Assembly: GCA_964579335.1 (NCBI GenBank)
Contig: CAZOFS010000001.1
Coordinates: 11,196 to 75,195 of the forward strand
Source of the DNA: an uncultured Bdellovibrionales bacterium
GTDB taxonomy: Bacteria; Patescibacteriota; Minisyncoccia; Moranbacterales; UBA1568
DNA length: 64,000 bases
Direction: 5' to 3'
Shown: positions 22,384 to 52,424 of the stretch, piece after piece
Layout: each line of letters begins with the position of its first letter
Position numbering within the stretch: position 1 is the stretch's first letter
Notes under the pieces: model-generated
The model's database searches: none
What the model saw: only the letters and a program-made list of their open reading frames with translations
What the model was told of the DNA's origin: nothing
Program-made: the position numbers and the translations under genes

Positions 22384-23319
22384 ATGGAAATTACCACTAC
22401 CGGACGGCCTACTCTCGCAGTAGGGATACCTTGTTTTAACGAAGAATTGACGATTGCTCAGGTGATCCAAGATTTCCGCAAAGAATTGCCGGAAGCCGAA
22501 ATTTTCGTCTTTGATAATAATTCCAGAGACCAAACAGTAAGAATAGCAAAGGAAAACGGGGCTCAGGTTATTTATGAAAAGAAGCAAGGGAAGGGTTACG
22601 CCATGCAGCGCATGTTTCAAACCATGCAAGCCGACATACTTGTTATGGTAGACGGTGATGCCACGTATTTTGCTAAGGATGTGCATAAGCTTATCAAGCC
22701 TATCCTTGAAGATGATGCCGATATGGTAGTAGGCAACCGGCTACATCAGAATGACAAAGGGTTTTCTTTCGCCCATCGTTTTGGTAATGTACTTTTTAAA
22801 ATGCTTCTCAATTATCTCTTTAATACCCGGTATCAAGACATTCTTTCCGGATATCGGGCGATGAAGAAAGAATTCTACCAAGGTATCCCGCTTCTTGCTG
22901 GGGGGTTTGAGGTAGAAACAGAGCTGACACTGCAGTCCCTTGATCGGGGCTATTTCGTCCAAGAAGTACCGGTAGATTATACCAACCGACCAGTGGGAAG
23001 CCACTCAAAAATAAGCGAATTCAAGGACGGATCGAGGATTATTCTTACCATCATTTCACTCCTACGAGATTATCGACCAATGATATTTTTTTCCTACCTC
23101 GGTGGAGTTTTTATTGCTTTCGGACTTATCTTTGGAGGTGTGGTGGTAGTAGAATTCTACCAATCGGGTTTTATCACTCGAGTTCCTACTGCAATTCTCT
23201 CCATTGCCCTAGTTATTGTTGGAGTGAATGCTATTATTTCTGGTCTTATCCTGAGCGCAGTAGGACGACGCCAAAAGGAAACAGAACTTATTATGCGTCA
23301 AATTACGAAGAGGGGATAA
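22384..23319 (+). CDS. GT2 polyprenyl-phosphate glycosyltransferase (GtrB/DPM1/ArnC-like) with C-terminal TM helices
   Basis: LAVGIPCFNEELTIAQVIQDF...FVFDNNSRDQTVRIA...MVDGDATY, plus two C-terminal TM segments. Start placed at ATG 22384 (MEITTTG). The ORF is open from TTG 22327. Confidence 0.7.
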   Translation: MEITTTGRPTLAVGIPCFNEELTIAQVIQDFRKELPEAEIFVFDNNSRDQTVRIAKENGAQVIYEKKQGKGYAMQRMFQTMQADILVMVDGDATYFAKDVHKLIKPILEDDADMVVGNRLHQNDKGFSFAHRFGNVLFKMLLNYLFNTRYQDILSGYRAMKKEFYQGIPLLAGGFEVETELTLQSLDRGYFVQEVPVDYTNRPVGSHSKISEFKDGSRIILTIISLLRDYRPMIFFSYLGGVFIAFGLIFGGVVVVEFYQSGFITRVPTAILSIALVIVGVNAIISGLILSAVGRRQKETELIMRQITKRG

Positions 23320-24103
23320 GTTTCCTCTTAATGTTCTTAATGAAGTTGGGAGTCAGGATGACGATGAGCGGCTCAATCAGGTAGCGATAGTATAGCCAAC
23401 TATATCCATATCTGCGGATGTACTTGGTTTGGGTTTTGGCACATTGCCACATTTGCGCCCGTTGTTTTTCAATAGAAATTCCCTTCTCGATAGAACGGTA
23501 GCAGAGAAATTCAGGAAGATTGTAGAACTTCGTTTTTGGTGAGAGCCGAAGCCAGAGATCATAATCCTGGCCATAGCGGACAGATTCGTCATATTTCCCA
23601 ACTTCCTTGACGAGATAAGTCTTGAAGACGACACAGCTATGGGCAAAGGGATTTCTTTTGATAATGCTTTCTTTGATTTCTTCGTCACTCACCTTGAGGC
23701 TCACCGGGAATTCCTGGTTATGGGCAAGGTTAATGTAGTTGCAGCCGATCAGTCCGTACTCTCCGTGAGTCTCGAGAAAATTGAGTTGCTGTTCAAGCTT
23801 CTCAGGATGCCACCAATCGTCAGCATCAATGCGCGCAGTATAGGTTCCGGAGGCTTTATCGAGGCCCTTATTGAGGGATTTGGTCAGTCCAAGGCCAGGA
23901 GTATTTTCTATGAGGTGAAATCTTTCCTGGAAGATTGACTGCCATTTTTGGATGGCAGTGGCAGTAGTATCGGTGGAACCATCATTGATACAGACAATTT
24001 CAAAGTCCTGGAATGTCTGTTTTTGTATGCTCTCAAAACACTGGTCAAGCGTCGATGCCCCGTTGTGGATGGAAATAAGAATGGTGACTTTGGGTGAGTT
24101 CAT
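23303..24103 (-). CDS. Glycosyltransferase family 2
   Basis: VTILISIHNGASTLDQCFESIQKQTFQDFEIVCINDGSTD and ARIDADDWWHPEKL (DxD / catalytic-base region). Confidence 0.75.
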   Translation of the reverse strand: MNSPKVTILISIHNGASTLDQCFESIQKQTFQDFEIVCINDGSTDTTATAIQKWQSIFQERFHLIENTPGLGLTKSLNKGLDKASGTYTARIDADDWWHPEKLEQQLNFLETHGEYGLIGCNYINLAHNQEFPVSLKVSDEEIKESIIKRNPFAHSCVVFKTYLVKEVGKYDESVRYGQDYDLWLRLSPKTKFYNLPEFLCYRSIEKGISIEKQRAQMWQCAKTQTKYIRRYGYSWLYYRYLIEPLIVILTPNFIKNIKRKLIPSS

Positions 24104-25200
24104 GATCGTGTAAATCCAGTCAGTAGTTTATTCCAGTCATTGGCAATTTTTCTCAGAGAAAAATGTTCTTCCATGAATTTTTTGGCGGCCTGGCCAATGC
24201 GGGAACGAAGTGCTTCATCGGCCAAGAGTTTCTCGAGTGCGTCTGCGATGGCATCGCTATTTTTTACTGGGACAAGCATTCCGGTCGCTTTATCTTTTAC
24301 TAATTCTCGGTTTTCTTCGATGTCAGTCGTAATAACTGGCAGTCCGGCAGCCATCGCTTCCATGAGGGCGTTGCTCATGCCTTCAAAAAAAGTGGGCAAA
24401 ACAAAGATATGGGAAAGCTGCAGAATTTTGGGGACATCAGTTCTCTTGCCAAGAAAAAAAATATGTTCTCGAGAAACATACGAATCGATTTGCTTCTTCA
24501 GATTTGCTTTTTCTTCCCCATCGCCAATAAGGAAGAGCTTCGCACGGGGATGTCTTTGATGCACGTTTTCGAAAGCTTCCAAGAGGTAAGCATGTCCTTT
24601 ATTGGTATGCAGATTTGCTACGCAGACGATGACGGTTTCTCCCGGGGCGATGCCGAGAGACTCCTTGAGGGAGAGGTTGGCGAGAGCGGGGGTGGTATCA
24701 ATGCCATTTGGTAAAACTTGGATAGTATCCCTGACTATTCCTAAATGTTTTGCGTAGAAGCGTTTTACGGCCTCGGAGTTGGCGATGTATTGCTTCACGA
24801 GTGGCCGGGTAAGCCTCATGAGGAGGCGGGCGATAAAGTAGCGGGGATGGTTGTAGGTGGTGCGAAGGAAGGGGATGGGTGGGGCAGGAAGGATACCCCA
24901 AAGAATAAAACGAGTAACCATATCAGCATGGAAGAGATAGCTCAGGACAAGGTCGGGCTGCTCTTCTTTTACAAAGGTGCGAAGGCGGAGAAGTCCTGAA
25001 AAGTCAAAGAGGCCTCGGCAATGCACCGTCGCTACCCGGATATTGGCGGAAGCAAACCGGGGGGCGAGCTCCCCGAGTTCTTTGAGGGTGATAACGGTAT
25101 GCTCAAACTCGTCGAGGAGAGGAAGGGTACGAAGAAGCATATTCTCACAGCCGCCGTTATCGAGCGATTGGATAATGTGAAAAACCTTCTTTTTCCCCAT
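24100..25200 (-). CDS. Glycosyltransferase family 4
   Basis: FEGMSNALMEAMAAGLPVITTDIEENRELVKDKATGMLV. Start placed at MGKKKVFHII (25200). The ORF is open to 25224, which would overlap the upstream gene by 22 nt. Confidence 0.75.
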   Translation of the reverse strand: MGKKKVFHIIQSLDNGGCENMLLRTLPLLDEFEHTVITLKELGELAPRFASANIRVATVHCRGLFDFSGLLRLRTFVKEEQPDLVLSYLFHADMVTRFILWGILPAPPIPFLRTTYNHPRYFIARLLMRLTRPLVKQYIANSEAVKRFYAKHLGIVRDTIQVLPNGIDTTPALANLSLKESLGIAPGETVIVCVANLHTNKGHAYLLEAFENVHQRHPRAKLFLIGDGEEKANLKKQIDSYVSREHIFFLGKRTDVPKILQLSHIFVLPTFFEGMSNALMEAMAAGLPVITTDIEENRELVKDKATGMLVPVKNSDAIADALEKLLADEALRSRIGQAAKKFMEEHFSLRKIANDWNKLLTGFTRS

Positions 25201-25202
25201 TG

Positions 25203-26294
25203 TCATACCCGTGTGCCAATACACGTTATCCCTGCTTCAGGGTGCTCGTAGGCTTCAATTGCTTGCAAATGCGCATCAGTAAACCATTCTCGAATTTCTT
25301 CTACGTAGTAGTAGTTACTTTTGGGTGTGGCCAAAACATCAAAGGCATCATTGAGCTTCATGTTGAAGGGAAAATGGCGATAGTAAGCAAAGGGAAGCTT
25401 CTCTTCAAGTTTGGGAAACCCAATTTCACCGAGCCACTTTCCGAAGAGATTAATGCCATGGACGACTCCCCCGGGGATATAGCACAGCTTGAAAAGAAGG
25501 GGTTTTGGAAGTTTCTTGAGGAGGGAGCGCAGTGGTTCGTAGAAATAGAGCGCCCGGGCATTGTTGCGGCGGTTATACACCCAAATAAGCATCTTTCCGC
25601 CTATTTTGAGGACACTAGGAAGTTTACTGAAGCCCTGCTTGGGTTGGGGCAAATGATGAAGCACGCCAATAGAGTAAGCAATGTCAAAAATCTGATGGAA
25701 GGGCATGGCATAAATATCAGCCTGGACAATGCAGACATTAGGCAAATCTTTAGTCAGGCCATAGGCAACCTCAACCGTTTCTCCGAGATCGGTCCCAAAA
25801 GAAACTTCGGTTCCCGAAAGAGCTGCCCATTTGGTAAATCGCCCTGAACCACAGCCGATATCGAGGGTAGTTTTTCCTTTTAAATCCTGCTCTCTGAGAA
25901 AAGGGGAAAGAAAATGGAAAAAGTTATTTTTTTCATAATCGTTTTCTTTGTAGATATATTTCCATTCATAAGCGAAACTCTCAGCTGTTTTTTTCTGGTG
26001 CCTGAGGAATGCATCGAGGTCGGGAATATTATCGATGGCCCGCTGCCACTCGTTATGGGCGTTTTCAGGCAATTGATCTTTGTGTTGGTGAAAAAAGTCC
26101 TGGTGAGCTTGAAGGAGGTTTTCTTTGAGTTCACCGATGAGAATACGAGGAATCCCATTAATAATGGGGTACCAGCTTTGAGTAGTAGTGAGGAGGCCAG
26201 AAATCACATGCTCCCCCTCTTTTTGATAGGAGTGGAGTTCGAAGAGTTCATGGAAAAGAGGATCAGAAAGATGGGGAAGGAATTTTTCACGCAT
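25203..26294 (-). CDS. Trm112-like small domain fused to a class I SAM-dependent methyltransferase
   Basis: N-terminus SWYPIINGIPRIL (Trm112p-like zinc-ribbon-like motif). C-terminus TLDIGCGSGRFTKWAALSGTEVSFGTDL and GGKMLIWVYN. Confidence 0.6.
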   Translation of the reverse strand: MREKFLPHLSDPLFHELFELHSYQKEGEHVISGLLTTTQSWYPIINGIPRILIGELKENLLQAHQDFFHQHKDQLPENAHNEWQRAIDNIPDLDAFLRHQKKTAESFAYEWKYIYKENDYEKNNFFHFLSPFLREQDLKGKTTLDIGCGSGRFTKWAALSGTEVSFGTDLGETVEVAYGLTKDLPNVCIVQADIYAMPFHQIFDIAYSIGVLHHLPQPKQGFSKLPSVLKIGGKMLIWVYNRRNNARALYFYEPLRSLLKKLPKPLLFKLCYIPGGVVHGINLFGKWLGEIGFPKLEEKLPFAYYRHFPFNMKLNDAFDVLATPKSNYYYVEEIREWFTDAHLQAIEAYEHPEAGITCIGTRV

Positions 26295-26358
26295 AGAGGG
26301 TTTACAGTATTTATCCGTTAATTATAGACGATTTAGTACTTTCTTCAAGCAGGGAAAA

Positions 26359-27039
26359 TTAGGGCTTTTGGCAAATAATCGTGTAGTGAGGATACACCAA
26401 CATGCGCTTTTTAGTGAGGGAAGATGTTATAAAACCTATCTTCTTAAGTTCCTGCTCTGCTGTTTCGGCTACCATCTCATTGCCTATTTCTCCCGCGCAT
26501 ACAAAGTCATGAAGTTTGTTGAAACTTGTGAGAATGGGTTGTCCGGCATCAATGTCTTTTAGGACAAGTTTTGTACCAGGAGCCATTTTGTTGTAGATCT
26601 CCTGGAGAAAGGTAACCTGATCTTGTTTAGGGACGTGATGGAGTACATCAATGAGGAAGATATAGTTATACAAGCTGACTGTTTCAGGAATATCTTTCCC
26701 ATTGAAAGTGGTGAGGGTAGTAGAGATAGAGGTATTTTCTTGAAGCACTCTCTTGGCATTACTAATCAACGTGTCTGAAATTTCAATTCCTCCGAGGAGA
26801 TGGGGGTATTTGAATTTTGAGACTAAAGAAAGAAACATGCCATTACCACAACCGATATCGAAAACAGCAGCTTTCTCTGGGAGAATGTCGAGAAGATCAC
26901 CAAGAGGGCAGATATAAGGACGGTAAGCAATCTTAAGTTTATCAAGCAATTTTGCATCCTTTGGATCTCTTGATTGAAGGAACTGGGAAAGTTCACGGTT
27001 AGAAAATTTTTTCATAGTATTTGGTGAGGCCTGAAACAT
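26359..27039 (-). CDS. Class I SAM-dependent methyltransferase
   Basis: AAVFDIGCGNGMFLSLVSK, GGIEIS, and IFLIDVLHHVPKQD...GTKLVLKD. The annotated start overlaps the upstream gene by 41 nt; an alternative start is MKKF at 27015. Confidence 0.7.
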   Translation of the reverse strand: MFQASPNTMKKFSNRELSQFLQSRDPKDAKLLDKLKIAYRPYICPLGDLLDILPEKAAVFDIGCGNGMFLSLVSKFKYPHLLGGIEISDTLISNAKRVLQENTSISTTLTTFNGKDIPETVSLYNYIFLIDVLHHVPKQDQVTFLQEIYNKMAPGTKLVLKDIDAGQPILTSFNKLHDFVCAGEIGNEMVAETAEQELKKIGFITSSLTKKRMLVYPHYTIICQKP

Positions 27040-29209
27040 TTTTTTGAAACCAAGGACGGAGGAAGCTTAAGGTAGCTAGCTGATAGAGAAGAAGTTGGAT
27101 GTTTATTCCCAAGAGCAGGGTAATAAAGAAATCATAAATGGCAAGCATAGCTATGCCATTATGTTGTCCAAAAAATGAATTTTCAATAATAAGTGGAAGA
27201 AAAGAGAAGATAAACATAAAAAAAGGAAGGGAAAATTTCCAGGAACGTCTTTGAATAATAAAGAAAAGATTAATGAAAGAAAGGATGGTTACGGTAAACC
27301 ATAGCAGGGATCGAATAAAGGAAGTGTTAATAATATGACGATAGATGTTATTTGAAAGGAGTGATATAAGATCGAAGTAATTACCCTGGAAAGATTTTGT
27401 GATCCCGGTAAGGAACTTTATTGCGGAATGTTCGTGGTAGGTAATACTTTGACCCAAAGCAGTTTTAATTTCAGGGAGGAGGTTCACAAATCCGCTGGTG
27501 GGCATAATAATAAACGTCCCGGCTACGGTGAAATTGCGAAAACCAATAAAAATAGGAAAGAGTATGAACCCTATTACAAAAAAGAGGATGGTATATCTCC
27601 TTATAAATGCAAAGGGTGGTTCAAAAAACTTTACTCCTAAGAAGATGAAAACTCCTAAAAGGAGAGGGATCCAATCGGTTCGCATCATGCAGATAACTCC
27701 CCATAGAAGCCCTAGGAGAAAATAGTGAACCCAGGATGGGGTATTATTTTTGAGAAGGAAAAACATGTGCGCAAATGCGAGTACAACAAGAGGAAAAGCA
27801 ATAGCTTGTTGATATGGAGTGTGAAACAAAGCAAAAGGAGAAGTGGTAGGAAAAACCATGAGGAAAAAATAGCTCGCACCAAAGGTGAGTGCAACAGCTT
27901 TACCAAATTGTATGGCGAGAACAAAGACAAGAAAAAGAAAGGCTAAAGAAAATAGAAGGGTTTGGGCTACATATGGTCCCCACATTGGTTCGTCGAATAC
28001 CTTGTGAAAGGCAGCAAGAAAGAATCGGTGAAGTGGCTGATAGTAGTACGGCCCGTTCTTTTCGGTAGCTCGCAACATATCTTGGAAATTAGTGACTGAA
28101 AAAGTAGAGCGAGCAAATGACTCGTGGCCAAGCTCATCGCTGCCACCTTTAAAGAAAATGGTCTCTTTGGGTTGGGCATGTGCAGTAGCTAGGATAGATG
28201 CATTGCAAAAGAGTATGAGGAGGAGAAATGCAAGGATATTTCGTTTTGAATTCATTAGGTGAAGTATCCAGTAAAAAGAAGTGATGATAAAGATGCATGA
28301 GAAAAGAGAAAGTGAGAGCTTGAAGCTGAGGAAGTCTTGCTGGACGAGCCAAAAAAATCCAATAAGACTAAAGATAGTACTTAAAAGGAAATATTTCTCC
28401 TTCTTTTCTAATGCTTTTGTTTTCAGCAATAAACCCCAGAGAAAACAACCTAGTAAGAAAGTGAGCAGAAAAACGTTAATGAACTTGTAAATCTCTGTAA
28501 AGAGAATAACTACTGTCCCGGTTGGGAGAGTGTATAAGGGTGTTCCTGACACAGCAATTCGTAGGACACTTTTCTTTTTAATGGTGGCTTCATATTTTAT
28601 AGAGATCTGATTAAATTCATTGGGAACAAGATTGAAGGCCTCCCGCTTTTTCCCAGTTGTTTCAAGAGTTTTTCCGTTGATTGAAACCAATACTTTTTTG
28701 TCAGCGTGAACAATAATTTGATCGCCTGGCTTCGAGTAGAGAAAGGTGCTTGCCTCAAGGATATAGGGAAGAGTATCTCGTTTGGGTTGGTTCTCTTCGT
28801 AAAAGTTGAATGAAATATTATTAAAAAAATACAAAGGCATGTTCTTGCTATCAAAATCAACTTTTTCGTAAGTGTAGCCATTAATACCAGCTGGATCTTC
28901 AGCTGTAGGCTCGCAGCGAGACTGAAGTTTATTGATACCCACATCGCTCTTTATACATACTGACCACCCGTAGGGGAGGAAGTAATAAGATGTTATCTGT
29001 ATAACAAGGAGGAGAGTGAGAGAGGTTATTATTATTTTTTTGAGCCGAGGGGAGGTTTCCCAAGTGGTGGCTAAAATGAGCCAAAAACCAATGAAAGATC
29101 CAACCATCTCTTCGGCCGAAAGAGGTAATCCATCGAAAAACCCGGCTTTACTCCCCGGGAGGATACATATCAGAGTAAAAAGAATTGTGGCAAGGATTTT
29201 GAATCGCAT
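26999..29209 (-). CDS. Large membrane protein: N-terminal signal/anchor, about 230-aa extracytoplasmic domain, then about 12 TM helices (putative GT-C glycosyltransferase or polymerase)
   Basis: 736 aa. Signal-like N-terminus MRFKILATILFTLICILPGSKA. Long hydrophobic C-terminal two-thirds with short loops. Confidence 0.45.
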   Translation of the reverse strand: MRFKILATILFTLICILPGSKAGFFDGLPLSAEEMVGSFIGFWLILATTWETSPRLKKIIITSLTLLLVIQITSYYFLPYGWSVCIKSDVGINKLQSRCEPTAEDPAGINGYTYEKVDFDSKNMPLYFFNNISFNFYEENQPKRDTLPYILEASTFLYSKPGDQIIVHADKKVLVSINGKTLETTGKKREAFNLVPNEFNQISIKYEATIKKKSVLRIAVSGTPLYTLPTGTVVILFTEIYKFINVFLLTFLLGCFLWGLLLKTKALEKKEKYFLLSTIFSLIGFFWLVQQDFLSFKLSLSLFSCIFIITSFYWILHLMNSKRNILAFLLLILFCNASILATAHAQPKETIFFKGGSDELGHESFARSTFSVTNFQDMLRATEKNGPYYYQPLHRFFLAAFHKVFDEPMWGPYVAQTLLFSLAFLFLVFVLAIQFGKAVALTFGASYFFLMVFPTTSPFALFHTPYQQAIAFPLVVLAFAHMFFLLKNNTPSWVHYFLLGLLWGVICMMRTDWIPLLLGVFIFLGVKFFEPPFAFIRRYTILFFVIGFILFPIFIGFRNFTVAGTFIIMPTSGFVNLLPEIKTALGQSITYHEHSAIKFLTGITKSFQGNYFDLISLLSNNIYRHIINTSFIRSLLWFTVTILSFINLFFIIQRRSWKFSLPFFMFIFSFLPLIIENSFFGQHNGIAMLAIYDFFITLLLGINIQLLLYQLATLSFLRPWFQKNVSGLTKYYEKIF

Positions 29210-29213
29210 AGGC

Positions 29214-29870
29214 TTAGCCTATCTTATTTTGAAATTTCTTATATTTGGTAAGGAGATGGTAAATCAAAGAAGAAGATTTTTCTTGAAAATTTTTTCTGTC
29301 GAGGCTTTGGAGAAAGTTAGTGGCTGAAGTAAAATCAATATCACTCATGAGTGTTTTTCCATATTCACCAGCAAAGTGGGCATCGCTGGCGCATATAGGT
29401 GTTTTCCCATAGCGCTCAATGAACTGAGAAGCTTTTCGGTTATCAGACTGGAAGATATTGCGTGCATTAAAAACCTCAATAGCATCGATGAGATGGAGGT
29501 TTTTTTTCAGCTCAGCTGTTGTAAGTACGTGTTTCCGGAGCCGGTCAAAAGGATGGGGGACTATGGTAATGCCGCCTTGGCGCTTGATGGCCTCAAGGGT
29601 GGCTTGGGGAGTGAGTCCGGCTGGTATTTTTTCCTGAATAAATAAGCCGATAACTTCTCCAGCGGAAGTATTAATTTCTTCACCAACAATTACCGTCAGC
29701 CCAGAAGGGGCCATACTCCTGAGTCGGAGGGCGCCAGCTATTTCGTTGTGGTCAGTGATGGCAATGCCTGAAACTTGCTGAGTAATGCAACGCTGTATAA
29801 CATTCTCCAAACTTGCTCCTGCATCTTTGGAATACGGAGCAGTGTGGCAGTGGAATTCAAAATATGACAT
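29214..29870 (-). CDS. PHP-domain metal-dependent phosphoesterase
   Basis: PHP motifs FHCHT (HxH), ITDHN, IVPHPF and ASDAHF. 6 nt downstream of the UbiA-family gene. Confidence 0.7.
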   Translation of the reverse strand: MSYFEFHCHTAPYSKDAGASLENVIQRCITQQVSGIAITDHNEIAGALRLRSMAPSGLTVIVGEEINTSAGEVIGLFIQEKIPAGLTPQATLEAIKRQGGITIVPHPFDRLRKHVLTTAELKKNLHLIDAIEVFNARNIFQSDNRKASQFIERYGKTPICASDAHFAGEYGKTLMSDIDFTSATNFLQSLDRKNFQEKSSSLIYHLLTKYKKFQNKIG

Positions 29871-29876
29871 AGGTGT

Positions 29877-30755: not shown

Positions 30756-31156
30756 AATATTTTTGGCTGGGTATCTGGTTTATAAAAAACCCAGTATTTA
30801 CTAGAAAAATAAGTAAAAAGAATAGCAAAAATAAGCGCGATGGTTTTCGAGATGTTGTAGTGAATTCCAAAGTTTATTGTGGCGAGATGAATAATAAATT
30901 CGGTAATGCCCAGAGCTATAAAGGTAACAAAAAGGTAATGGGAAATTTTTGAAAACTCTCGACCAGAAGTATTGTAACGAAAAGTCCATCTGCTATGAAG
31001 GATATAGCCTACTATCACACTTGTCGTAAATCCTAAAAGAACAGACCAGAAAAGGGTAAAATGAAGACCTAAATAGAGAATATTTAAAACAAAATAATCT
31101 ACTGAAATACTGAAAATTCCGACCAGGCTATAGCGTACCAATTGATACTCTATCAT
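30752..31156 (-). CDS. GtrA-family small membrane protein (lipid-linked sugar translocation accessory)
   Basis: 134 aa, 4 TM helices. VRYSLVGIFSISVDYFVLNILY...HSRWTFRY matches the GtrA-like family. 4-nt overlap with the UbiA-family gene. Confidence 0.7.
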   Translation of the reverse strand: MIEYQLVRYSLVGIFSISVDYFVLNILYLGLHFTLFWSVLLGFTTSVIVGYILHSRWTFRYNTSGREFSKISHYLFVTFIALGITEFIIHLATINFGIHYNISKTIALIFAILFTYFSSKYWVFYKPDTQPKIL

Positions 31157-31171
31157 ACGGGAGAAATTCGA

Positions 31172-32674: not shown

Positions 32675-32686
32675 TCTGGTAAGCAG

Positions 32687-36881: not shown

Positions 36882-36968
36882 ATATCTTCCAAATTATAGC
36901 CTATTCCACCCTCTTGCGTAAAGAATTTTCCCTTAAAAAAGCCATTATCATTCGATTGAGTTGGAGAC

Positions 36969-40411: not shown

Positions 40412-40413
40412 AA

Positions 40414-43506: not shown

Positions 43507-43893
43507 TTATTTTTTTTGAGAAATTTCTTTGAGCGCATCCTGACGAGTAAGTACGGTCATTTGCTGCTCGAGGTACTCGATAGCTGACAATAGTTTGAAA
43601 ATAATGAGGAAAACAAGAATGAATCCAGTTAGAATAACTGCATTAAGGTTCCCTTCAATACCGATTATACGCGCTAATGTATTGGTAAGCCCAGGAAAAA
43701 CAACAATCGCTGCCATGCCGCCCCACACGACGATACGAACTCCAATCTTGAGGAGTGTTTGATGATCTTTGCCTTTAAAGAAATTACTCAGGCCTTGATA
43801 GATCATAGCCCCGGCAATGATGAGGATAATAACTTGGTAGAGCTGGAGATTCTCGAATTGCATACGAGTCGGATTTAAGAAATAATGTTCCAA
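43507..43893 (-). CDS. DUF2304-like small membrane protein (GT2-associated)
   Basis: About 120 aa with three TM helices. Immediately downstream of, and overlapping, a GT2 gene, the typical context for this family. Alternative start at MQFENL (43863). Confidence 0.5.
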   Translation of the reverse strand: MEHYFLNPTRMQFENLQLYQVIILIIAGAMIYQGLSNFFKGKDHQTLLKIGVRIVVWGGMAAIVVFPGLTNTLARIIGIEGNLNAVILTGFILVFLIIFKLLSAIEYLEQQMTVLTRQDALKEISQKK

Positions 43894-44588
43894 ATAATCT
43901 TATAGAGTGTTTTGAGGCCATTCACAAACCCTTGTTTTTGAATCTTTCCCATAGAATATTCAGTATAGCGTACCTCGATGGGTACCTCAGCATAACGCAG
44001 TCGGTATTGATAAATCTCACGGATCACCTCGCTGTCATATTCATAGCGATCTGTCTTGGTATTGATCCGATCAACCGCAGAGCGAGCATAGGCGCGAAAG
44101 CCGGATTGGCTGTCAGAGACGTAGAGTCCATAGAAGTACCAAGTAATAACATTGCCAATCTTGTTGGCGATAATTTTATACCATGGCATACCCTCAGGAT
44201 TGATAAGGCGAGTACCAAGCGTTACTTCGCATTGTTTTTTCTGGATGGGCTCAATAAGTTTGGCAATATCCCTCGGGTTGTGTTGCCCGTCGCTATCCAT
44301 GGTAATGATCACTTCTGCTCCCAGCAACTTCGCGGCTTCGATACCAGTTTTGGTAGCTGCTCCTTTGCCACGGTTGAGCCGATGGCGGAGGGTCATGACC
44401 CCAGTTTTTTGAGCCACAGCAAAAGTATCGTCTCGGCTTCCATCGTCTACCACAATGATATTGTGGTACCCAGCCGTATGAATTTCTCGTATGACACTCT
44501 CAAGTACCTTGGCTTCATTGTAAGCAGGGAGGACAACATATAGCAATGGCTGTTGGGGAGAAGTTGGCTCCATAGCGTTAGTGAGCAA
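43875..44588 (-). CDS. Glycosyltransferase family 2 (polyprenyl-phosphate sugar synthase-like soluble domain)
   Basis: LYVVLPAYNEAKVLESVIREIHTAGYHNIIVVDDGSRDDT and TMDSDGQHNP. Confidence 0.75.
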   Translation of the reverse strand: MLTNAMEPTSPQQPLLYVVLPAYNEAKVLESVIREIHTAGYHNIIVVDDGSRDDTFAVAQKTGVMTLRHRLNRGKGAATKTGIEAAKLLGAEVIITMDSDGQHNPRDIAKLIEPIQKKQCEVTLGTRLINPEGMPWYKIIANKIGNVITWYFYGLYVSDSQSGFRAYARSAVDRINTKTDRYEYDSEVIREIYQYRLRYAEVPIEVRYTEYSMGKIQKQGFVNGLKTLYKIIWNIIS

Positions 44589-44675
44589 GGTTCTCTAAAA
44601 AAGGCTCAATCAAAGCAAAATATGCCATTAGTGTAGCATATGAACCGAGTCCTTCCAAGACTTGTTGTGGGGTAC

Positions 44676-45614
44676 CTACGATTCTTCTCGTAGTCTCGCT
44701 TTAAACCACGTCACTGTAGCCGTGATACCTTCCGAGATAGCTACTTCAGGTTTCCATCCAAGGAGGGTGGTGGCTTTGGTCGAGTCGAGGGCGCTTCGCT
44801 TGACTTCGCCTGGCTTGGCCGGCCCATGACTCGCTTCAAAGGCTTTGCCAAATTGCCAGTTAACCAAACGGAAAATTTCATTCACGTTTGTTTCTTGGCT
44901 CGTACCAATATGGAAGATCCCCTCAGTGAGTTCTGAATCAAGGGCTGCGAGGTTGGCTTTGACGACATCGCTCACATACACGTAGTCCCGAGTCTGTTCG
45001 CCGTCACCATTGATGATCGGAGCTCGACCCTCGAGCATAGCACTAGTAAAAATAGCGATCACCCCAGCCTCACCGTGTGGGTTTTGACGTGGGCCATAGA
45101 CATTGCCGTAGCGGAGCACGATGTAGGGGAGCGAGCGTTCGCGGTGGTAAAACTTGAGGTATTCCTCAACCCCGGCCTTGGCCAGACCATAGGGTGAGAG
45201 GGGGGTCATAGACTCCTCTTCAGTGGCTGGGTAGTGGGCTTCATCACCAAACATAGCGCCACCGGTGGAAGAAAAGATAAACTTCTTAACCCCGGCTTTG
45301 GCGGCCATGTCCATGAGTCGCAGGCTGCCAAGGATATTGCACTCAGCATCGATAATAGGATTCTCAACCGAGGCGCGGACATTGATTTGCCCTGCAAGGT
45401 GAAAAATAGCCTCGGGCTCTACACGCTTGAAGACGCTTTCGAGCTTCTTTTGATTGGCAACATCGCCTTTGATGAATTTGGCCCGGCGATTGAGATTCTC
45501 CTCTTGGCCCGAAGAAAGATCGTCGAGCACGGTCACTCGATGTCCTCGATCGATTAACGCATCTACAATGTGGGATCCAATAAATCCTGCCCCACCAGTA
45601 ACGAGTATACGCAT
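44676..45614 (-). CDS. NAD-dependent epimerase/dehydratase (GalE/UXS-like extended SDR)
   Basis: MRILVTGGAGFIGSHIVDAL, YGLAK, and RYGNVYGPRQ. Start placed at MRILV (45614); the ORF is open to 45629. Confidence 0.75.
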   Translation of the reverse strand: MRILVTGGAGFIGSHIVDALIDRGHRVTVLDDLSSGQEENLNRRAKFIKGDVANQKKLESVFKRVEPEAIFHLAGQINVRASVENPIIDAECNILGSLRLMDMAAKAGVKKFIFSSTGGAMFGDEAHYPATEEESMTPLSPYGLAKAGVEEYLKFYHRERSLPYIVLRYGNVYGPRQNPHGEAGVIAIFTSAMLEGRAPIINGDGEQTRDYVYVSDVVKANLAALDSELTEGIFHIGTSQETNVNEIFRLVNWQFGKAFEASHGPAKPGEVKRSALDSTKATTLLGWKPEVAISEGITATVTWFKARLREES

Positions 45615-45640
45615 AGATTGATAGCTCAATAATACCCATT

Positions 45641-45737: not shown

Positions 45738-46679
45738 ATGAATAACGAACAACCGTGGCTTTCTGTTGTTGTCCCGCTGTATAACGAAGAGGGCAATGTG
45801 GTTGAGCTACACCAAAAAATTCTTACCGCTCTCGAGAAGCTTGGACGGCCGTTTGAAATTATTTTTGTGGACGATGGTTCTCGAGATGGGACGCTCGAGC
45901 AAGCGCGTAGCCTGACGCCTCTGAAGCTTATCGTCTTTCGGAAAAATTTTGGTCAGACAGCTGCTTTTGACGCGGGGATTAAAGCTGCTCTCGGTGAAGT
46001 TATTATTACCCTCGACGGCGATCTTCAAAATGATCCCAATGATATCCCACTCCTTCTCGCCAAAATGGATGAGGGCTACGATGTGGTTTCGGGTTGGCGC
46101 CACAAACGTCAGGATCCGTGGAGTAAGAAGATTCCTTCACGCATCGCTAACCTTCTCCGCAAATTCCTCATTCACGACGATATTCACGACTCTGGCTGTA
46201 GTCTCAAAGCGTACAAACGCGAATGCTTCAAAGATGTAGATCTCTTTGGTGAGATGCACCGTTTTATCCCAGCCATTTTGCAACTTGAGGGCTATCGGGT
46301 AGGGGAAGTCAAAGTGTCGCATCACCCGCGCCTCCATGGGGTCACCAAATACAATTGGAAACGCGGTTTCAAGGGACTTGTCGATATGATTTCCATTTGG
46401 TTTTGGCGTAAATATTCGCATCGGCCACTCCATCTCTTTGGGGCGAGTGGTGTAGTATTGTCTCTTCTCGGAGGCGCAATTCTTCTGTGGATGGTAGTCG
46501 AAAAGTTCTACTTTGACGCTTCCATCGCTGATCGCATCTGGCCCCTGGTTGGAATCTTCTTTACTCTTATCGGGGTGCAGCTTTTCATTTCAGGGCTCCT
46601 CGCCGATATTGCGGTCAGAAACTACTATCAGAATCGCCATCGGATGAATTACAATATCCGGGAAGTGCGGGAGCAGTAG
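45738..46679 (+). CDS. GT2 polyprenyl-phosphate glycosyltransferase (GtrB/DPM1-like) with C-terminal TM helices
   Basis: LSVVVPLYNEEGNVVELHQKI...EIIFVDDGSRDGT, LDGDLQNDP, and two C-terminal TM segments. Confidence 0.75.
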   Translation: MNNEQPWLSVVVPLYNEEGNVVELHQKILTALEKLGRPFEIIFVDDGSRDGTLEQARSLTPLKLIVFRKNFGQTAAFDAGIKAALGEVIITLDGDLQNDPNDIPLLLAKMDEGYDVVSGWRHKRQDPWSKKIPSRIANLLRKFLIHDDIHDSGCSLKAYKRECFKDVDLFGEMHRFIPAILQLEGYRVGEVKVSHHPRLHGVTKYNWKRGFKGLVDMISIWFWRKYSHRPLHLFGASGVVLSLLGGAILLWMVVEKFYFDASIADRIWPLVGIFFTLIGVQLFISGLLADIAVRNYYQNRHRMNYNIREVREQ

Positions 46680-46686
46680 CGTCTGG

Positions 46687-46728
46687 AGTATTAAGTATTA
46701 AGTATTGGGTATAGAGTATCGGGATATT
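46687..46728. repeat. Degenerate tandem heptamer repeat, six units of AGTATTA-like sequence
   Basis: AGTATTA AGTATTA AGTATTG GGTATAG AGTATCG GGATATT, read directly from the sequence. Intergenic, about 60 nt upstream of ugd. Confidence 0.6.
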
Positions 46729-46790
46729 TGCCGGTATGATTTTGTTCTCGTACAAGATACATACTACGAGATACTGTATATAAATTTATT

Positions 46791-48101
46791 ATGAAACTTT
46801 CTTTTCTCGGGACAGGCTATGTGGGACTGGTGTCGGGGGCGTGTATGGCCGAGATCGGGCATGAGGTGATTTGTGCTGATGTGGATAAAGACAAAATCGC
46901 CAAACTGAAAAAAGGGGTCATCCCGATTTATGAAATTGGGCTTGAGGAAATTGTCGAGCGCAATGTGCGGGAGGGACGACTGCGGTTCACCACTGACCTC
47001 AAGGAAGCGGTCCAGACATCGGAGGTAGTCTTTATGGCAGTCGGGACGCCCGAGGACAAGCTTACCGGCCAAGCGGATCTCCAGTATGTGTTTTCAGCTG
47101 CGGAAGTATTTGGCAAGCACTTGAATGGTTACAAAATCTTCGTCGATAAATCCACAGTGCCAGTAGGGACTGCGGAGAAGGTAGAGACTATTATTAAGCA
47201 AGCTTCCAAGGGTAAACATCCATTTGAAGTGGTTTCCAATCCTGAGTTTTTGCGTGAAGGAGCAGCGGTCAAAGATTTCCTCAATCCTGATCGGGTAGTG
47301 GTTGGGGCGACTTCTGCCAAGGCCAAAAAAATCATGGAGCAGATTTATCGACCGATTGCTCGGGCGGGGCGGCCAGTAGTGTTTACCGATGTGCGGAGTG
47401 CGGAGATCATCAAATATGCGGCCAATGCTTTCCTTGCTATGAAGATTACTTTCATCAATGAGGTGGCTAATTTCTGTGATGTAGCTGGTGGCAATGTCAA
47501 AGAAGTGGCTCGAGGTATTGGTTGCGACAATCGGATCGGTTCACGTTTCCTCTACGCCGGTATCGGTTATGGTGGATCATGTTTCCCCAAAGACGTGAAA
47601 GCTCTGATTGAAACGGGTCGTGAGTATGATGCCCACTTCCATATTATTGAAACGGTGAGTGAGGTCAACGAAGCCCAACGCATCAAACCATTTATCAAAC
47701 TCAAGAACGTGTTTGGTGATTCGCTCAAAGGGAAGACGGTTGCTGTCTGGGGTCTTGCTTTCAAGCCACGGACTGACGATATCCGAGAGGCACCTGGGAT
47801 TGAGAATATTAAACTCTTGCTTGAAGCAGGCGCTCGGGTCAAGACCTTTGATCCGGTAGCGATGCCCAACACTCAAAAAGTACTGCAGCATAAGAATCTC
47901 ATCTATACCAAAAAAGCCCTCGATGCCCTCAAGGGAGCTGATGCGCTCATTATCTGTACCGAGTGGGACGAGTTCCGGGTGGTAGACTACAAGGACCTAC
48001 GAAAGCTTATGAAGGGCACGCTCATCTATGATGGTCGCAATGTCCTCGAACGTTCCGAGGCCGAGGCTGCCGGTTTTACGTACTTTGGGATTGGAGTCTA
48101 A
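46791..48101 (+). CDS. ugd: UDP-glucose 6-dehydrogenase
   Basis: N-terminal FLGTGYVGLVSGACMAEIGHEV, the catalytic region GGSCFPKDV, and a length of 436 aa. Confidence 0.85.
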   Translation: MKLSFLGTGYVGLVSGACMAEIGHEVICADVDKDKIAKLKKGVIPIYEIGLEEIVERNVREGRLRFTTDLKEAVQTSEVVFMAVGTPEDKLTGQADLQYVFSAAEVFGKHLNGYKIFVDKSTVPVGTAEKVETIIKQASKGKHPFEVVSNPEFLREGAAVKDFLNPDRVVVGATSAKAKKIMEQIYRPIARAGRPVVFTDVRSAEIIKYAANAFLAMKITFINEVANFCDVAGGNVKEVARGIGCDNRIGSRFLYAGIGYGGSCFPKDVKALIETGREYDAHFHIIETVSEVNEAQRIKPFIKLKNVFGDSLKGKTVAVWGLAFKPRTDDIREAPGIENIKLLLEAGARVKTFDPVAMPNTQKVLQHKNLIYTKKALDALKGADALIICTEWDEFRVVDYKDLRKLMKGTLIYDGRNVLERSEAEAAGFTYFGIGV

Positions 48102-48190
48102 GACAATAATCAGTTATCAATTAGCAATCGACGAAGAGAGAATTATTTCAGGTTTTGTTAACTGCTTATTGTTTATTGATATTTGTTCCA

Positions 48191-49353
48191 TGAAGATTTT
48201 ATTTTTGAACTACGAATACCCGCCTTTGGGGGGCGGGGCGGCCAATGCCACGGCTCAGCTCCTGGCGGAATGGTCGCGGGACAGTGATCTCGAGGTGCAT
48301 CTCATTACCTCGAGTATTACGGCACATCTCGAACATGAGCGAGTCGGAGGCAAAGTGTATGTGCATCGTTTACCTATCGGAAAAGATTCAAAACGTCTTC
48401 ATCATCAGTCTATCAAAGACATTGTGCTTTATAGCGTCAAAGCCTGGTGGTTTGGGCGGAAACTTTTACGTGAACAAGCGCCTTTTGACGTGACCCTCGC
48501 TTTTTTTGGCGTGCCCTCCGGTTTTATCGCCTGGCTTTTTCGACAGAGCTTTGGCATTCCGTATGTCGTTGCTCTCCGCGGGTCCGATGTCCCTGGCTAT
48601 AGTCGCAAATTTACCTGGTTGTACCCACTGCTTCGCCCAGTCATTCGTCTCATTTGGAGAGGAGCAGGAGCGGTGGTACCCAATAGCGAGGGACTCGCGG
48701 CCTTGGCCCGCCAAACCGATCCACGACAAGTTTTTACCATTATCGAAAACGGAGTCGACACGAGGCAATTTATGCCTGACCCAACCAAGCGCCCAGTGGG
48801 GGAATGTATCATTACCCCCGGAGCTTCACGCGTGACAGAACGCAAAGGACTCAAGTATCTGATCGAGGCGGTAGCCGAGCTCATACCGCATTACCCGGAA
48901 CTCCGGCTCAAGATCATGGGAGATGGTGAGGCACGCCCAAGTTTGGAAGCGCTTGTGAAAGAATTGAAGCTTGAGGCTCATGTCACTTTTCTCGGGCGTG
49001 TCCCGAGAGAAGAGACGGCCCCACATTATCAGGAAGCCTCGCTCTTTGTCCTTCCATCACTCAATGAAGGGATGAGTAATGCTATGCTTGAGGCGCTCGC
49101 CTCGGGACTCCCTATCATTGCCACACCGACCGGTGGTACGGCTGAGCTTGTGACTGAAGGCAAAAATGGTCTGATTGTTCCAGAGAAGTCAGCTGATGCT
49201 TTGGCTCAGGCTATCGAAGTATTCCTCAAAAACAAACATCTTATCACCGAGTATGGCGTTGCGAGCCGGGCCAAAGCCGAGGCACAGGGCTGGGATAAAA
49301 CTGCCCAAGCTTTTTATCGTGTACTTGAAAGCGTAATCACCAAAACAGCTTAA
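48191..49353 (+). CDS. Glycosyltransferase family 4
   Basis: MKILFLNYEYPPLGGGAANA and NEGMSNAMLEALASGLPIIATPTGGTAELV. The ORF is open from 48028 but would overlap ugd, so the start is placed at 48191. Confidence 0.7.
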
Positions 49354-50333
49354 TGTCCTTAACTTTGAAACAGATACTTAAGTGGGGGATAGCTGGACTT
49401 CTTGTCTGGTGGCTTATTGGACATGTTGACTGGATTACGGTTCTTGGGATTCTCAAGCAGGTTTCGTTGCCGCTTATTGGACTCTACTGCGTGCTCCAAC
49501 TCGTAGGCAATCTTCTCTCGGCGGCCAAATGGCAAATGATTGCCAAGACCCAAGGCTTCACCTTCTCGCTTCGGGATGGATTTTTCAGCTATCTTTCGGG
49601 AGCCTTTATTAATAATTTCCTCCCATCGACGATCGGTGGAGATACGTACCGGACTCTGTGGATGAGCGAGCCCGGGAAACGTTTTGAAGCCTTTACCGTC
49701 GTTCTCTTTGATCGCCTGAGTGGACTCCTTGCTCTCTTTCTCTCAGCAGCGGTAGGACTCTTCTTATTGCCGTGGCAAGCGTTTATCGCTGATCCAATTC
49801 TCATCATTATTGGGCTCGTCATTATCAGTATGACGGTGTGTATTCTTATATCGCTTTTTTGGTTTACGGGCCTCTTTGAACTAGTCCTCCTCATTGTTGA
49901 TTGGGTACCGTTTGCGATCTTTGAACGTATCAAACAAATGATCGAGCGCTTCCGGCCCTTAATTGAGATCGATCTCTATCTGAAGTCGCTTCTCTACTCA
50001 CTCGTCTTTCTTGGGATTGGCGTTGGGCTGTCCAACCTTTTTCTCTGGCAGGCGCTCGGGGCCCCGTTCCCACTCCTTACTTTCTTTGGCTGTATCTTTC
50101 TCGCGACCCTCATTGCCAATATTCCTATCTCGGTCAACAATATCGGTGTCAAAGAATGGTCGTATATCCTCGTTTTTGGTCTGGTCGGTGCCTCGCCTGA
50201 GCTTGCGGTAACCGCAGCCCTCCTCTCCCGTCTCCTCCAGATGCTCCTCTCATTCATCGCCGTCCCAGCGTATCTACGATTCAAAAGAGTTGCTAATAAA
50301 CAGGCGCTTAGTTTATCTCAAGTTATTGAATAG
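49353..50333 (+). CDS. Lysylphosphatidylglycerol-synthase-TM-domain (UPF0104) family membrane protein, flippase-like accessory
   Basis: 326 aa with about 8 TM helices. KWQMIAKTQGFTFSLRDGFFSYLSGAFINNFLPSTIGGDTYR resembles the LPG_synthase_TM family. Start overlaps the GT4 stop by 1 nt. Confidence 0.55.
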   Translation: MSLTLKQILKWGIAGLLVWWLIGHVDWITVLGILKQVSLPLIGLYCVLQLVGNLLSAAKWQMIAKTQGFTFSLRDGFFSYLSGAFINNFLPSTIGGDTYRTLWMSEPGKRFEAFTVVLFDRLSGLLALFLSAAVGLFLLPWQAFIADPILIIIGLVIISMTVCILISLFWFTGLFELVLLIVDWVPFAIFERIKQMIERFRPLIEIDLYLKSLLYSLVFLGIGVGLSNLFLWQALGAPFPLLTFFGCIFLATLIANIPISVNNIGVKEWSYILVFGLVGASPELAVTAALLSRLLQMLLSFIAVPAYLRFKRVANKQALSLSQVIE

Positions 50334-52413: not shown

Positions 52414-52424
52414 AGGGAGAAGGA

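Follow-up and report, generated by a model that had tools for sequence, protein, structure and literature searches.

A modular surface-glycan locus in a Moranbacterales bacterium with candidate three-component glycosylation branches

Introduction

Much of the antigenic diversity of bacterial surface glycans comes from three-component systems, which consist of a synthase, a flippase and a GT-C glycosyltransferase and of which flipping is the least understood step. To our knowledge, no GtrA, ArnE/F, MATE or UPF0104 protein has been biochemically shown to flip a monosaccharide linked to polyprenyl phosphate (polyprenyl-P). Here we describe a 64-kb stretch of DNA, referred to as the window (positions 11,196 to 75,195 of contig CAZOFS010000001.1, assembly GCA_964579335.1), from an uncultured Moranbacterales bacterium (Candidatus Moraniibacteriota) of the candidate phyla radiation (CPR, or Patescibacteria), a lineage usually described as small-genomed and metabolically reduced. 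The locus holds three different candidate accessory families (GtrA, DUF2304 and UPF0104) in one organism, and its relatives swap families at the same gene position. An earlier note on this DNA had described three modules, each pairing an accessory membrane protein with a polyprenyl-P glycosyltransferase of family 2 (GT2), and had taken them to imply at least three lipid-linked monosaccharide donors for periplasmic or surface GT-C enzymes. A search of the literature on CPR glycosylation returned nothing relevant.

Results

Gene content of the locus

Pfam scans of about 50 open reading frames (ORFs) identified nearly the whole window as a single glycan-assembly locus. Families were called with Pfam gathering thresholds and NCBIfam cut-offs, and folds were assigned from AlphaFold models compared with the PDB by Foldseek. 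The gene calls are longest ORFs, and membrane helices were taken from a simple Kyte-Doolittle hydropathy scan with a threshold of 1.6, a crude method that uses no topology predictor. Alongside an initiating sugar transferase and two Wzx-like flippases (Table 1), the locus encodes many GT2 and family 4 (GT4) glycosyltransferases, nucleotide-sugar enzymes and an AsnB-type amidotransferase. GT-C enzymes, which the note had expected in the periplasm or at the surface, number at least six, and we count six to seven.

The three accessory proteins are found where the note had placed them, and each is recognized by the hidden Markov model of its family (PF04138 for GtrA, PF10066 for DUF2304 and PF03706 for UPF0104, also called LPG_synthase_TM). 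The three GT2 genes, ugd and the GT4 gene are likewise present, and the GT2s match PF00535 and are of the polyprenyl-P type. Each accessory gene lies, as had been claimed, in a tight operon with a synthase of a polyprenyl-P-linked monosaccharide. There are four candidate synthases of this kind, three of them GT2 enzymes and one of the UbiA family.

The G+C content of the window ranges from 0.34 to 0.50, with 0.34-0.41 in blocks at 14-20 kb and 27-39 kb versus 0.47-0.50 in the flanks. Low-G+C blocks are typical of the variable parts of polysaccharide loci. The two blocks (14000-20000 and 27000-39000) coincide with the parts that differ between relatives, the UbiA cassette included. The locus is a mosaic of cassettes whose presence varies from relative to relative. 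Nearly all of the approximately 50 larger ORFs are related to glycans, and it could be argued that a small CPR genome simply packs all its envelope-glycan genes together, so that the co-location of the accessories is incidental and uninformative. We regard this as quite improbable: every accessory gene directly adjoins, within an operon, a cognate synthase or GT-C, and for two of them this contact persists in relatives at identities as low as 31-40%.

Table 1. Features of the window. The rows follow the order of the text: the GtrA-UbiA cassette (26359-31156), the DUF2304-GT2 group (43507-45629 and 34824-36881), the cassette around UPF0104 (45738-56561) and other genes. Cut-offs are given in brackets.
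Feature	Coordinates	Strand	Basis
GtrA-family small membrane protein	30752-31156	-	PF04138 70 bits (26.1), model positions 1-117 of 117
UbiA-family polyprenyl-P 5-phosphoribosyltransferase (DPPRS/PPPRS type)	29877-30755	-	NCBIfam NF008977 276 bits (234); NF008978 209.6 bits (207)
PHP-family metal phosphoesterase	29214-29870	-	PF02811 43 bits
PMT_2-type GT-C, 736 aa, ~12 membrane helices	26999-29209	-	Library homologues
S-adenosylmethionine (SAM) methyltransferase, end of cassette	26359-27039	-	Methyltransf_23/11/12 matches
DUF2304 (GacJ/Rv3632-type) small three-helix membrane protein	43507-43893	-	PF10066 53.8 bits (25.5); three hydrophobic segments
GacI/PpgS-like GT2, 237 aa, no hydrophobic segment	43875-44588	-	PF00535 85 bits
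GalE-type UDP-hexose/HexNAc 4-epimerase	44676-45629	-	Solved GalE 4zrm, E 3e-98
Pfam-less GT-C, 685 aa, ~13 membrane helices and C-terminal extracytoplasmic domain	34824-36881	-	Fold and synteny
Polytopic membrane protein, 556 aa, no Pfam match	36969-38639	-	hhalign against PMT_2-type family
ArnC/GtrB-type membrane-anchored polyprenyl-P glycosyltransferase (GT2)	45738-46679	+	PF00535; two C-terminal helices
UDP-glucose 6-dehydrogenase (Ugd)	46791-48101	+	All three UDPG_MGDP_dh domains; position kept in loci L002-L007
GT4 (GT-B fold) glycosyltransferase	48028-49353	+	Glycos_transf_1 129 bits
Stand-alone MprF-flippase-domain (UPF0104/PplT) protein, 326 aa	49353-50333	+	PF03706 116 bits (33.4); NCBIfam TIGR00374 (flippase-like domain) 46.5 bits (43.2)
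PMT/PMT_2 GT-C, extra paralogue of 52425-54788	50509-52413	-	PF02366 34 bits; PF13231 32 bits
PMT_2 GT-C, 787 aa, conserved UPF0104 neighbour	52425-54788	-	PF13231 36 bits; orthologues in L002-L007
PMT_2/TMEM260-like GT-C, 592 aa	54783-56561	+	PF13231 38.9 bits; orthologues in L002-L007, E 1e-190 to 1e-216
AglJ/GtrB-like GT2, orphan	22384-23319 (longest ORF from 22327)	+	PF00535 84 bits; DGD motif in translation
Bac_transf initiating transferase	1332-2747		Pfam scan
Wzx-like flippases (two)	17430-18686, 59418-60902		Pfam scan
Methyltransferase genes	14138-15268, 16542-17216, 19985-20659, 20711-21505, 21509-22243, 25203-26294, 26359-27039, 31172-32674		

A GtrA-UbiA-PHP-GT-C cassette

The GtrA, UbiA, PHP and GT-C genes are contiguous, with gaps of at most 6 nt or overlaps. 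The stop codon of gtrA overlaps the start of ubiA by 4 nt, and 4 nt separate the GT-C gene from the PHP gene upstream of it. This layout differs from that of gtrABX, and the description as a GT2 module fails here: the partner of GtrA is a UbiA-family phosphoribosyltransferase, as the text of the note itself had said, and no GT2 gene lies within 7 kb. In the GtrA protein, which is 134 amino acids (aa) long, three hydrophobic segments pass the hydropathy threshold and a fourth stretch is seen near residues 100-120.

The sole solved-structure matches of the UbiA protein are those of Mycobacterium tuberculosis Rv3806c (8j8j, E 3.7e-33), with the catalytic motifs NDxxDxxxDRxHxxKRxRPIA and GKR lined up, and two NCBIfam equivalog cut-offs for decaprenyl-phosphate phosphoribosyltransferase are passed. 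The best genome match, with 66% identity, is in a metagenome-assembled genome of Moraniibacteriota. An ordinary prenyltransferase of isoprenoid-lipid or quinone synthesis would remove this module from glycosylation altogether, and homologues of about 40% identity from Anaerolineae do lie in an isoprenoid-like setting, amid genes for a GHMP kinase, a further UbiA and a protein of the amino-acid-kinase family. Set against the matches just given and a glycan locus in which a phosphatase, GtrA and a GT-C flank UbiA as in the published three-component layout, we find such a function very improbable.

The metal-binding motifs of the PHP protein (HxH, DH, E, H and DxH), read from the translation, are intact. 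A PHP gene is found beside UbiA in six other loci (L008-L011, L092 and L100). The order in L100 (3458-8608) is a FAD amine-oxidase-like protein, a DUF2298 membrane protein of 718 aa, PHP and UbiA; this may be another pentofuranose cassette, with the flavoprotein possibly in the place of DprE1. In a reverse scan of metagenomes, PHP homologues of 37-45% identity had UbiA adjacent in 2 of 80 loci, and UPF0104 without UbiA in another 2 of 80; in 33 of the 80 loci, the flanks extend for 1 kb or more on either side. With a UbiA link this rare, the PHP family as a whole was rejected as a marker of the pathway. The loci with UPF0104 and PHP adjacent or overlapping and no UbiA nearby are L098 (5889-7666), where MurJ and TatD are neighbours, and L101 (1004-2709).

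The own PMT_2 score of the cassette GT-C is below threshold (23.5 versus 26.1 bits). Among 66 of its homologues that were scanned, 35 have a PMT_2 match (best E 2e-19) and nine a PA14 carbohydrate-binding domain, whereas sequence and profile searches for the window's protein returned nothing in the PDB. Locus L008 holds an orthologue, which is fused with the methyltransferase as a single ORF of 980 aa; library relatives of 943-977 aa are also found.

Two relatives lack the cassette. Locus L091 is colinear with positions 24100-42309 of the window at 45-73% identity, yet is without exactly 26359-31156, and L090 is also without it. In L008, UbiA, PHP and the fused GT-C-methyltransferase come directly after AsnB, which is a different context. 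The five genes thus act as a single insertion/deletion unit. Our synteny samples are small, with four to six loci for this cassette, four for the DUF2304-GT2 pair and six for the UPF0104 cassette.

We propose that the UbiA-type enzyme would move ribose 5-phosphate from phosphoribosyl pyrophosphate onto polyprenyl-P, that the PHP phosphatase would strip the 5-phosphate from the resulting polyprenyl-P-ribose-5-P, and that GtrA would flip or scaffold the lipid-linked sugar, after which the PMT_2-type GT-C would add the pentofuranose and the methyltransferase may modify it. No epimerase is present within the cassette, and no FAD_binding_4/ALO-type protein that could stand for DprE1/DprE2 is found among the Pfam-scanned ORFs of the 64-kb window, which cover all large ones. 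The sugar is therefore predicted, by analogy with the known systems, to be ribofuranose (Ribf), carried as polyprenyl-P-ribofuranose.

Accessory proteins beside UbiA in related loci

UbiA is immediately followed, with a gap of at most 4 nt, by a gene for a UPF0104 protein (PF03706, 153-177 bits) in L009 (Berkelbacteria), L011 (Saccharibacteria) and L010, a third genome from the same UbiA scan; an epimerase of the short-chain dehydrogenase/reductase (SDR) family and the PHP phosphatase come next. The epimerase inside this UbiA-UPF0104-PHP cassette has about 350 aa (L009 11887-12966, L010 11868-12929, L011 2658-3710). By analogy with ORF13 of Citrobacter youngae (see Comparison with known systems), these cassettes would make another pentofuranose than the window's, e.g., xylofuranose (Xylf). 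In loci of Clostridium perfringens and Sarcina, UbiA has as neighbours a HAD phosphatase and two small EamA proteins, which form an ArnE/F-like pair. Three unrelated flippase-like families, GtrA, UPF0104 and EamA, thus occupy the same slot beside UbiA. A related exchange is known from published genetics, in which ArnE/F can substitute for Rv3789.

That UPF0104 fills this slot in place of GtrA suggests that the two families are functionally equivalent here. This swapping, seen in three CPR loci and a handful of others, is the strongest support for the accessories sharing one kind of job. We tentatively extend it to a proposal that could easily prove wrong, namely that the slot is interchangeable between GtrA and UPF0104 in CPR (and taken by EamA pairs in Clostridia), that UPF0104/PplT proteins are flippases of polyprenyl-P-monosaccharides, and that PHP is the phosphatase. 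If true, this would, together with the adjacency of UPF0104 and GT-C described below, give a testable identity to a class of three-component flippases never demonstrated biochemically, and a PHP-family enzyme would add a third, non-orthologous way of dephosphorylating polyprenyl-P-ribose-5-P.

An apparent association of UPF0104 with UbiA in about 12 loci of Chloroflexota (Anaerolineae-type), where the two genes are 2.5-4.7 kb apart, was rejected because LepA, an MFS transporter and FtsJ intervene and UbiA stands beside another UbiA gene, a GHMP kinase gene and one of the amino-acid-kinase family. The setting of UbiA in these loci is isoprenoid and not glycan.

A DUF2304-GT2 pair and its candidate GT-C

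The second accessory, DUF2304, is adjacent to a GT2 gene, as the note had reported, but the overlap that it gave hangs on a TTG start codon. With TTG at 43893 the two genes overlap by 19 nt. The ATG at 43863, which lies 11 nt past the GT2 stop codon and yields a protein of 118 aa, is likely the true start, since this length fits orthologues of 119-123 aa. The genes are adjacent with either start.

The best NCBIfam model of this GT2 is PpgS (157 bits, under the cut-off of 370), and its translation contains a DSD motif. We predict it to be a synthase of polyprenyl-P-linked N-acetylhexosamine (HexNAc). Directly upstream on the same strand is the GalE-type epimerase, which would be compatible with a UDP-GalNAc or UDP-Gal donor. 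A role of this enzyme as a decarboxylase or 4-epimerase of UDP-GlcA, tied to ugd, was rejected: structures of UDP-GlcA 4-epimerase and UDP-xylose synthase score only ~135-140 bits, it is far nearer GalE, and it is co-oriented with the GacI-like GT2.

The predicted GT-C partner of this pair has neither a Pfam match nor a sequence match in the PDB. Its AlphaFold model (pLDDT 89, pTM 0.91, built on 24 homologues) is of GT-C fold, the best 22 Foldseek matches in the PDB all being GT-C enzymes (among them PglB with E 9e-6, STT3, ALG9, AftA and ArnT). An invariant PDxDP motif (P169-D170-x-D172-P173) is present. In L005 and L090, GT2, DUF2304 and the orthologue of this GT-C follow one another directly and contiguously, and the GT2-DUF2304 pair is conserved there at 56-67% identity. 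Five inserted genes part the GT-C from the pair in the window. Next to it, the polytopic membrane protein of 556 aa may be a seventh GT-C. It carries a conserved PPEPDDSYNY motif past its first membrane helix, and helix 1 with the following loop, the region of the catalytic loop, aligns weakly to a PMT_2-type family by hhalign (probability 52%, E 1.5e-4).

GacJ associates with GacI in a complex and stimulates it, and the same is reported for Rv3632 and PpgS. By analogy, DUF2304 is predicted to be an anchor and activator of the adjacent GT2 and is therefore not to be counted as a translocation accessory. In the GacI/GacJ system the proposed flippase is the Wzx protein GacK and the transferase is a GT-C. 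For the window, the GalE-like epimerase would supply the UDP-sugar, the GT2, anchored and activated by DUF2304, would make polyprenyl-P-HexNAc (or -hexose), and the Pfam-less GT-C would transfer that sugar.

A GT2-ugd-GT4-UPF0104-GT-C cassette

The third group opens with a GT2 that aligns over its full length with ArnC (9hwj, E 2e-49) and GtrB (5ekp, E 1e-32). Its score with the ArnC equivalog model is 179 bits, below the cut-off of 529, so that it is not an ArnC orthologue by this measure. No formyltransferase, aminotransferase or deformylase that could act as ArnA, ArnB or ArnD is encoded in the window, which indicates that the donor is not 4-amino-4-deoxy-L-arabinose (Ara4N). The GT4 protein probably starts about 50 codons past the start of its longest ORF, because its orthologues have 381-388 aa; among solved structures, those of generic GT4 enzymes (PimB and MshA, for example) come nearest to it.

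PF03706 is the sole domain of the UPF0104 protein, and the C-terminal aminoacyl-phosphatidylglycerol synthase domain of MprF (DUF2156) is lacking. Its AlphaFold model (pLDDT 89.9) has the fold of the MprF flippase: the six top Foldseek matches are all MprF (probability 1.00, TM-score 0.59-0.63) and the next has E >0.4. We predict that this protein is the flippase of a lipid-linked donor. Those of its homologues that are named belong to Moranbacteria.

Six loci of relatives (L002-L007) keep the order GT2-ugd-GT4...UPF0104-GT-C(-)-GT-C(+) at 40-52% identity, with orthologues of the ArnC-like GT2 in all of them. The cassette described in the note is in this respect conserved, but the direct pairing of UPF0104 with a GT2 does not stand, as ugd, GT4 and sometimes four more genes lie between them. 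These four are found in L002 and L004 between GT4 and UPF0104, and UPF0104 remains beside the GT-C pair. Its invariant neighbour is thus a GT-C and not the GT2. That this adjacency survives insertions favours a role of UPF0104 in supplying the GT-Cs with the polyprenyl-P-sugar made by the ArnC-like GT2. In addition, a neighbourhood of UPF0104/AglD-GT2 and PMT-like genes has been described in archaea. The ugd gene embedded in the cassette points to the use of a uronic acid at some step in it.

Two observations touch the make-up of the cassette. The GT-C pair at 50509-52413 and 52425-54788 consists of paralogues, where relatives have one gene. The single GT-C of the relatives is closer to the latter (E 1e-150) than to the former (E 1e-65), for which no orthologue was found in the relatives examined; it looks like a local duplication or an acquired extra transferase. 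Furthermore, L004 (1786-2145) and L005 (5118-5477) have a small gene of the bAvd/23S_rRNA_IVP family, a type often associated with diversity-generating retroelements (DGRs), between the ArnC-like GT2 and ugd.

Another reading of these genes is that UPF0104, GT4 and Ugd form a glycolipid synthase and flippase, similar to GpgS/GpgF or HexS/HexF, which exports a glycosylated, perhaps glucuronosylated, membrane lipid, in which case the group would be no module of accessory plus GT2. One base belongs to both the stop codon of GT4 and the start codon of UPF0104, GT4-UPF0104 operons of Pseudomonas aeruginosa make GlcN-phosphatidylglycerol, and fusions of GT-B enzymes with PplT are reported in Chloroflexi, Actinobacteria and Acidobacteria; moreover, the MprF protein of P. 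aeruginosa has been called a promiscuous scramblase of lipids. We nevertheless consider this reading unlikely. GT-Cs use polyprenyl-P-linked donors, and these are products of an ArnC-like GT2 but not of a GT4. In L002 and L004 it is GT4 from which the four unrelated inserted genes separate UPF0104, in L009-L011 no GT4 comes between UPF0104 and the polyprenyl-P-pentose synthase that it directly follows, and archaeal AglD is a fusion of UPF0104 to a GT2. We therefore favour a scheme in which the ArnC/GtrB-like GT2 would make a polyprenyl-P-sugar, possibly of a uronic acid, the MprF-like UPF0104 protein would flip it, and two or three PMT_2 GT-Cs would use the flipped donor.

An orphan GT2 and the number of donors

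The fourth synthase is an orphan, with no accessory gene adjacent. Its closest NCBIfam model is TIGR04182 (AglJ), with 254 bits and below the cut-off of 325, and two C-terminal hydrophobic helices lie at residues 257-275 and 290-308 (numbered from the ORF that starts at 22327). It is a candidate polyprenyl-P-hexose synthase.

With four synthases, the note's figure of at least three lipid-linked donors is reasonable, and donors are better counted from the synthases than from the accessories. Its assumption that each accessory assists translocation fares less well. It does not apply to DUF2304 as an activator, it is disputed in the literature for GtrA, for which a scaffold is the alternative, and for stand-alone UPF0104 proteins flippase activity is only predicted. 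The linkage in relatives is borne out for two of the three accessories (31-57% identity) but not for GtrA, which is absent from L008 and from the loci of 80 UbiA homologues: PF04138 was found among the small membrane proteins near these UbiA genes only in the window's own protein, in a crude hydropathy screen that could miss some.

These results bear on the possibility that accessories and donors do not correspond one to one, and that GtrA is a shared flippase, scaffold or hub for several branches, the orphan GT2 included, in which case the count of accessory types would say nothing on the number of donors. Listeria GtcA serves both the C55-P-GlcNAc and the C55-P-Gal pathway, for Rv3789 and PA7_6247 the role of a hub and not of a flippase has been argued, GtrA is absent from L008, the closest cassette-bearing relative, and two of the four synthases, the orphan and the partner of DUF2304, have no identifiable flippase of their own. 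On the other hand, gtrA overlaps the start of ubiA and is lost in L091 along with the whole cassette, other CPR genomes examined hold a different flippase-like protein in that slot, and the donors can be counted from the four synthases anyway. In our view, this reading is less likely than not.

Other features of the locus

Nine SAM-dependent methyltransferase domains are encoded by eight genes, one of which has two domains and one a C-methyltransferase C-terminal domain. As they are scattered through the locus, they suggest that the glycan is heavily methylated. The AsnB-type glutamine amidotransferase (40414-42309) is a conserved anchor gene, 72-74% identical in L008, L090 and L091. In combination with Ugd, it could serve to amidate a uronic acid of the glycan. 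Closely downstream of the initiating sugar transferase, at 2792-3139, lies a gene of the holin family (Phage_holin_4_2) whose product has four helices. An operon at 10611-15268, which may be a pathway to an unusual nucleotide-activated sugar, comprises genes for a nucleotidyltransferase similar to MobA, a GatZ/KbaZ-like protein, a cupin, a HAD-type phosphatase and a C-methyltransferase-like protein. After the GT-C cassette comes a gene (56356-58860) for a protein of 834 aa that combines repeats of the right-handed beta-helix/NosD type with a weak PGA_cap-like region at its C terminus; it could be secreted and act in glycan binding or processing. A search for tRNA genes in the window returned none. 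A 7.9-kb piece of the window is identical in a Logan assembly.

Discussion

Taken together, we consider the window to be probably a modular surface-glycan assembly locus with three-component branches, which is the best explanation of the whole. A backbone would be built in the cytoplasm on a polyprenyl-diphosphate carrier by the Bac_transf initiator, GT2s and GT4s, methyltransferases and Wzx-like flippases, and would then be decorated outside the membrane by several independent branches. In each of these, a synthase would load a sugar on polyprenyl-P, a membrane protein would help to make or flip the lipid, and a GT-C would transfer the sugar; the orphan AglJ-like GT2 may feed another GT-C, e.g., that at 3906-5393. 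The family and fold assignments, the gene order and the conservation of the cassettes in relatives are the established part of this picture. The sugars, the pairings of synthases with GT-Cs and the flipping or activating roles are what homology and gene order would predict.

Several observations weigh against this model. The GT-C of the UbiA cassette is assigned transitively, through its library homologues, given its sub-threshold PMT_2 score and lack of a PDB match, and hhalign found no profile similarity to the other GT-Cs of the window. GtrA, which the closest cassette-bearing relative lacks, is the cassette's least conserved member; a word-indexed search returned only homologues of 93-100% identity, and the protein may be dispensable or may serve several branches. 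Since PHP proteins are rarely linked to UbiA, the phosphatase assignment rests on a small, mostly CPR subclade. No flippase was identified for the DUF2304-GT2 branch, for which the GacI/GacJ paradigm would propose a Wzx protein. UPF0104 lies right after GT4, and glycolipid systems of GT4 and UPF0104 exist. Finally, the identities of the sugars are guesses from neighbouring genes.

The locus shows a CPR organism with at least 60 kb devoted to a surface glycan that is elaborate, modular and apparently heavily methylated, and with at least one GT-C family that Pfam does not detect. Should the module assignments be wrong, there is no general consequence, and the locus is a routine polysaccharide gene cluster.

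Comparison with known systems

Every module belongs to a kind already described, and the novelty lies mostly in the combination and in new variants. New are the joining of these modules in one CPR locus, a PHP phosphatase with GtrA or UPF0104 where the pentofuranose system has a HAD/PAP2 phosphatase and a MATE flippase, a GT-C family without a Pfam match, and accessory families that replace each other at one position.

The UbiA cassette is, judged by analogy, a variant of the published three-component pentofuranose system that would work with non-orthologous parts. The prototype in Citrobacter youngae O1/O2 consists of ORF15 (PPPRS-PRP), ORF14 (MATE flippase) and ORF12 (GT-C/GT136), with or without ORF13, an SDR epimerase that turns undecaprenyl-phosphate-linked Ribf into the Xylf form, so that its presence or absence decides between the two sugars (Kelly et al., 2024; PMC11127046). 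Both systems hold a UbiA-type phosphoribosyltransferase, a 5-phosphatase, a flippase candidate and a GT-C in one portable cassette, and a carbohydrate-binding module is found in the GT-C of C. youngae and, as PA14, in relatives of the window's GT-C. The SDR epimerase of C. youngae O2 has its counterpart in cassettes of other CPR genomes, whereas the window's cassette has none, in keeping with the Ribf predicted for it. The parts differ in that the phosphatase is a PHP protein and not a HAD domain fused to ORF15, and the flippase candidate is GtrA (UPF0104 in other CPR genomes) and not MATE. The window's GT-C is PMT_2-like, and a methyltransferase is attached to it, or fused in relatives. The window shares with P. 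aeruginosa PA7 6246/6247 a GtrA-like gene beside a decaprenyl-phosphoribose (DPPR) synthase. In contrast to the mycobacterial and PA7 pathways to decaprenyl-phosphoarabinose (DPA), it has PHP instead of PAP2 (Rv3807c) or the PA7 phosphatase and is without DprE1/DprE2. Its CPR host also sets it apart from the pentofuranose prototypes.

The DUF2304-GT2 group resembles GacI/GacJ/GacL of the group A carbohydrate of Streptococcus pyogenes and PpgS/Rv3632/Rv3630 of M. tuberculosis, in which a helix-less GT2 of about 230 aa is followed by a three-helix DUF2304 protein of about 120 aa. A GT-C comes next in L005 and L090, as in these systems, and PpgS is the best NCBIfam model of the GT2, with a score below the cut-off, so that the match does not fix the sugar. 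The window differs in that its GT-C is five genes away and Pfam-less, a GalE-like epimerase lies upstream, and there is no adjacent Wzx protein (GacK).

For the UPF0104 cassette, the likeness is to the AglD-type (arCOG00899) archaeal neighbourhoods, ArnC-ArnE/F-ArnT and GtrB-GtrA-Gtr*, which share with it a membrane-anchored GT2, PMT_2 GT-Cs and the scheme of making, flipping and transferring outside. UPF0104 is a separate protein here, unlike in AglD, where it is fused to GT2; with respect to the Arn and Gtr systems, it takes the place of ArnE/F or GtrA, and ugd and GT4 lie between GT2 and UPF0104. The transmembrane fold is that of MprF, from which the window's protein differs by lacking the DUF2156 synthase domain. 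In common with GpgSDF/HexSDF, a GT4 gene lies directly upstream, as in gpgS-gpgF; the window differs from these systems in having no deacetylase and in the GT-C as the invariant neighbour of UPF0104.

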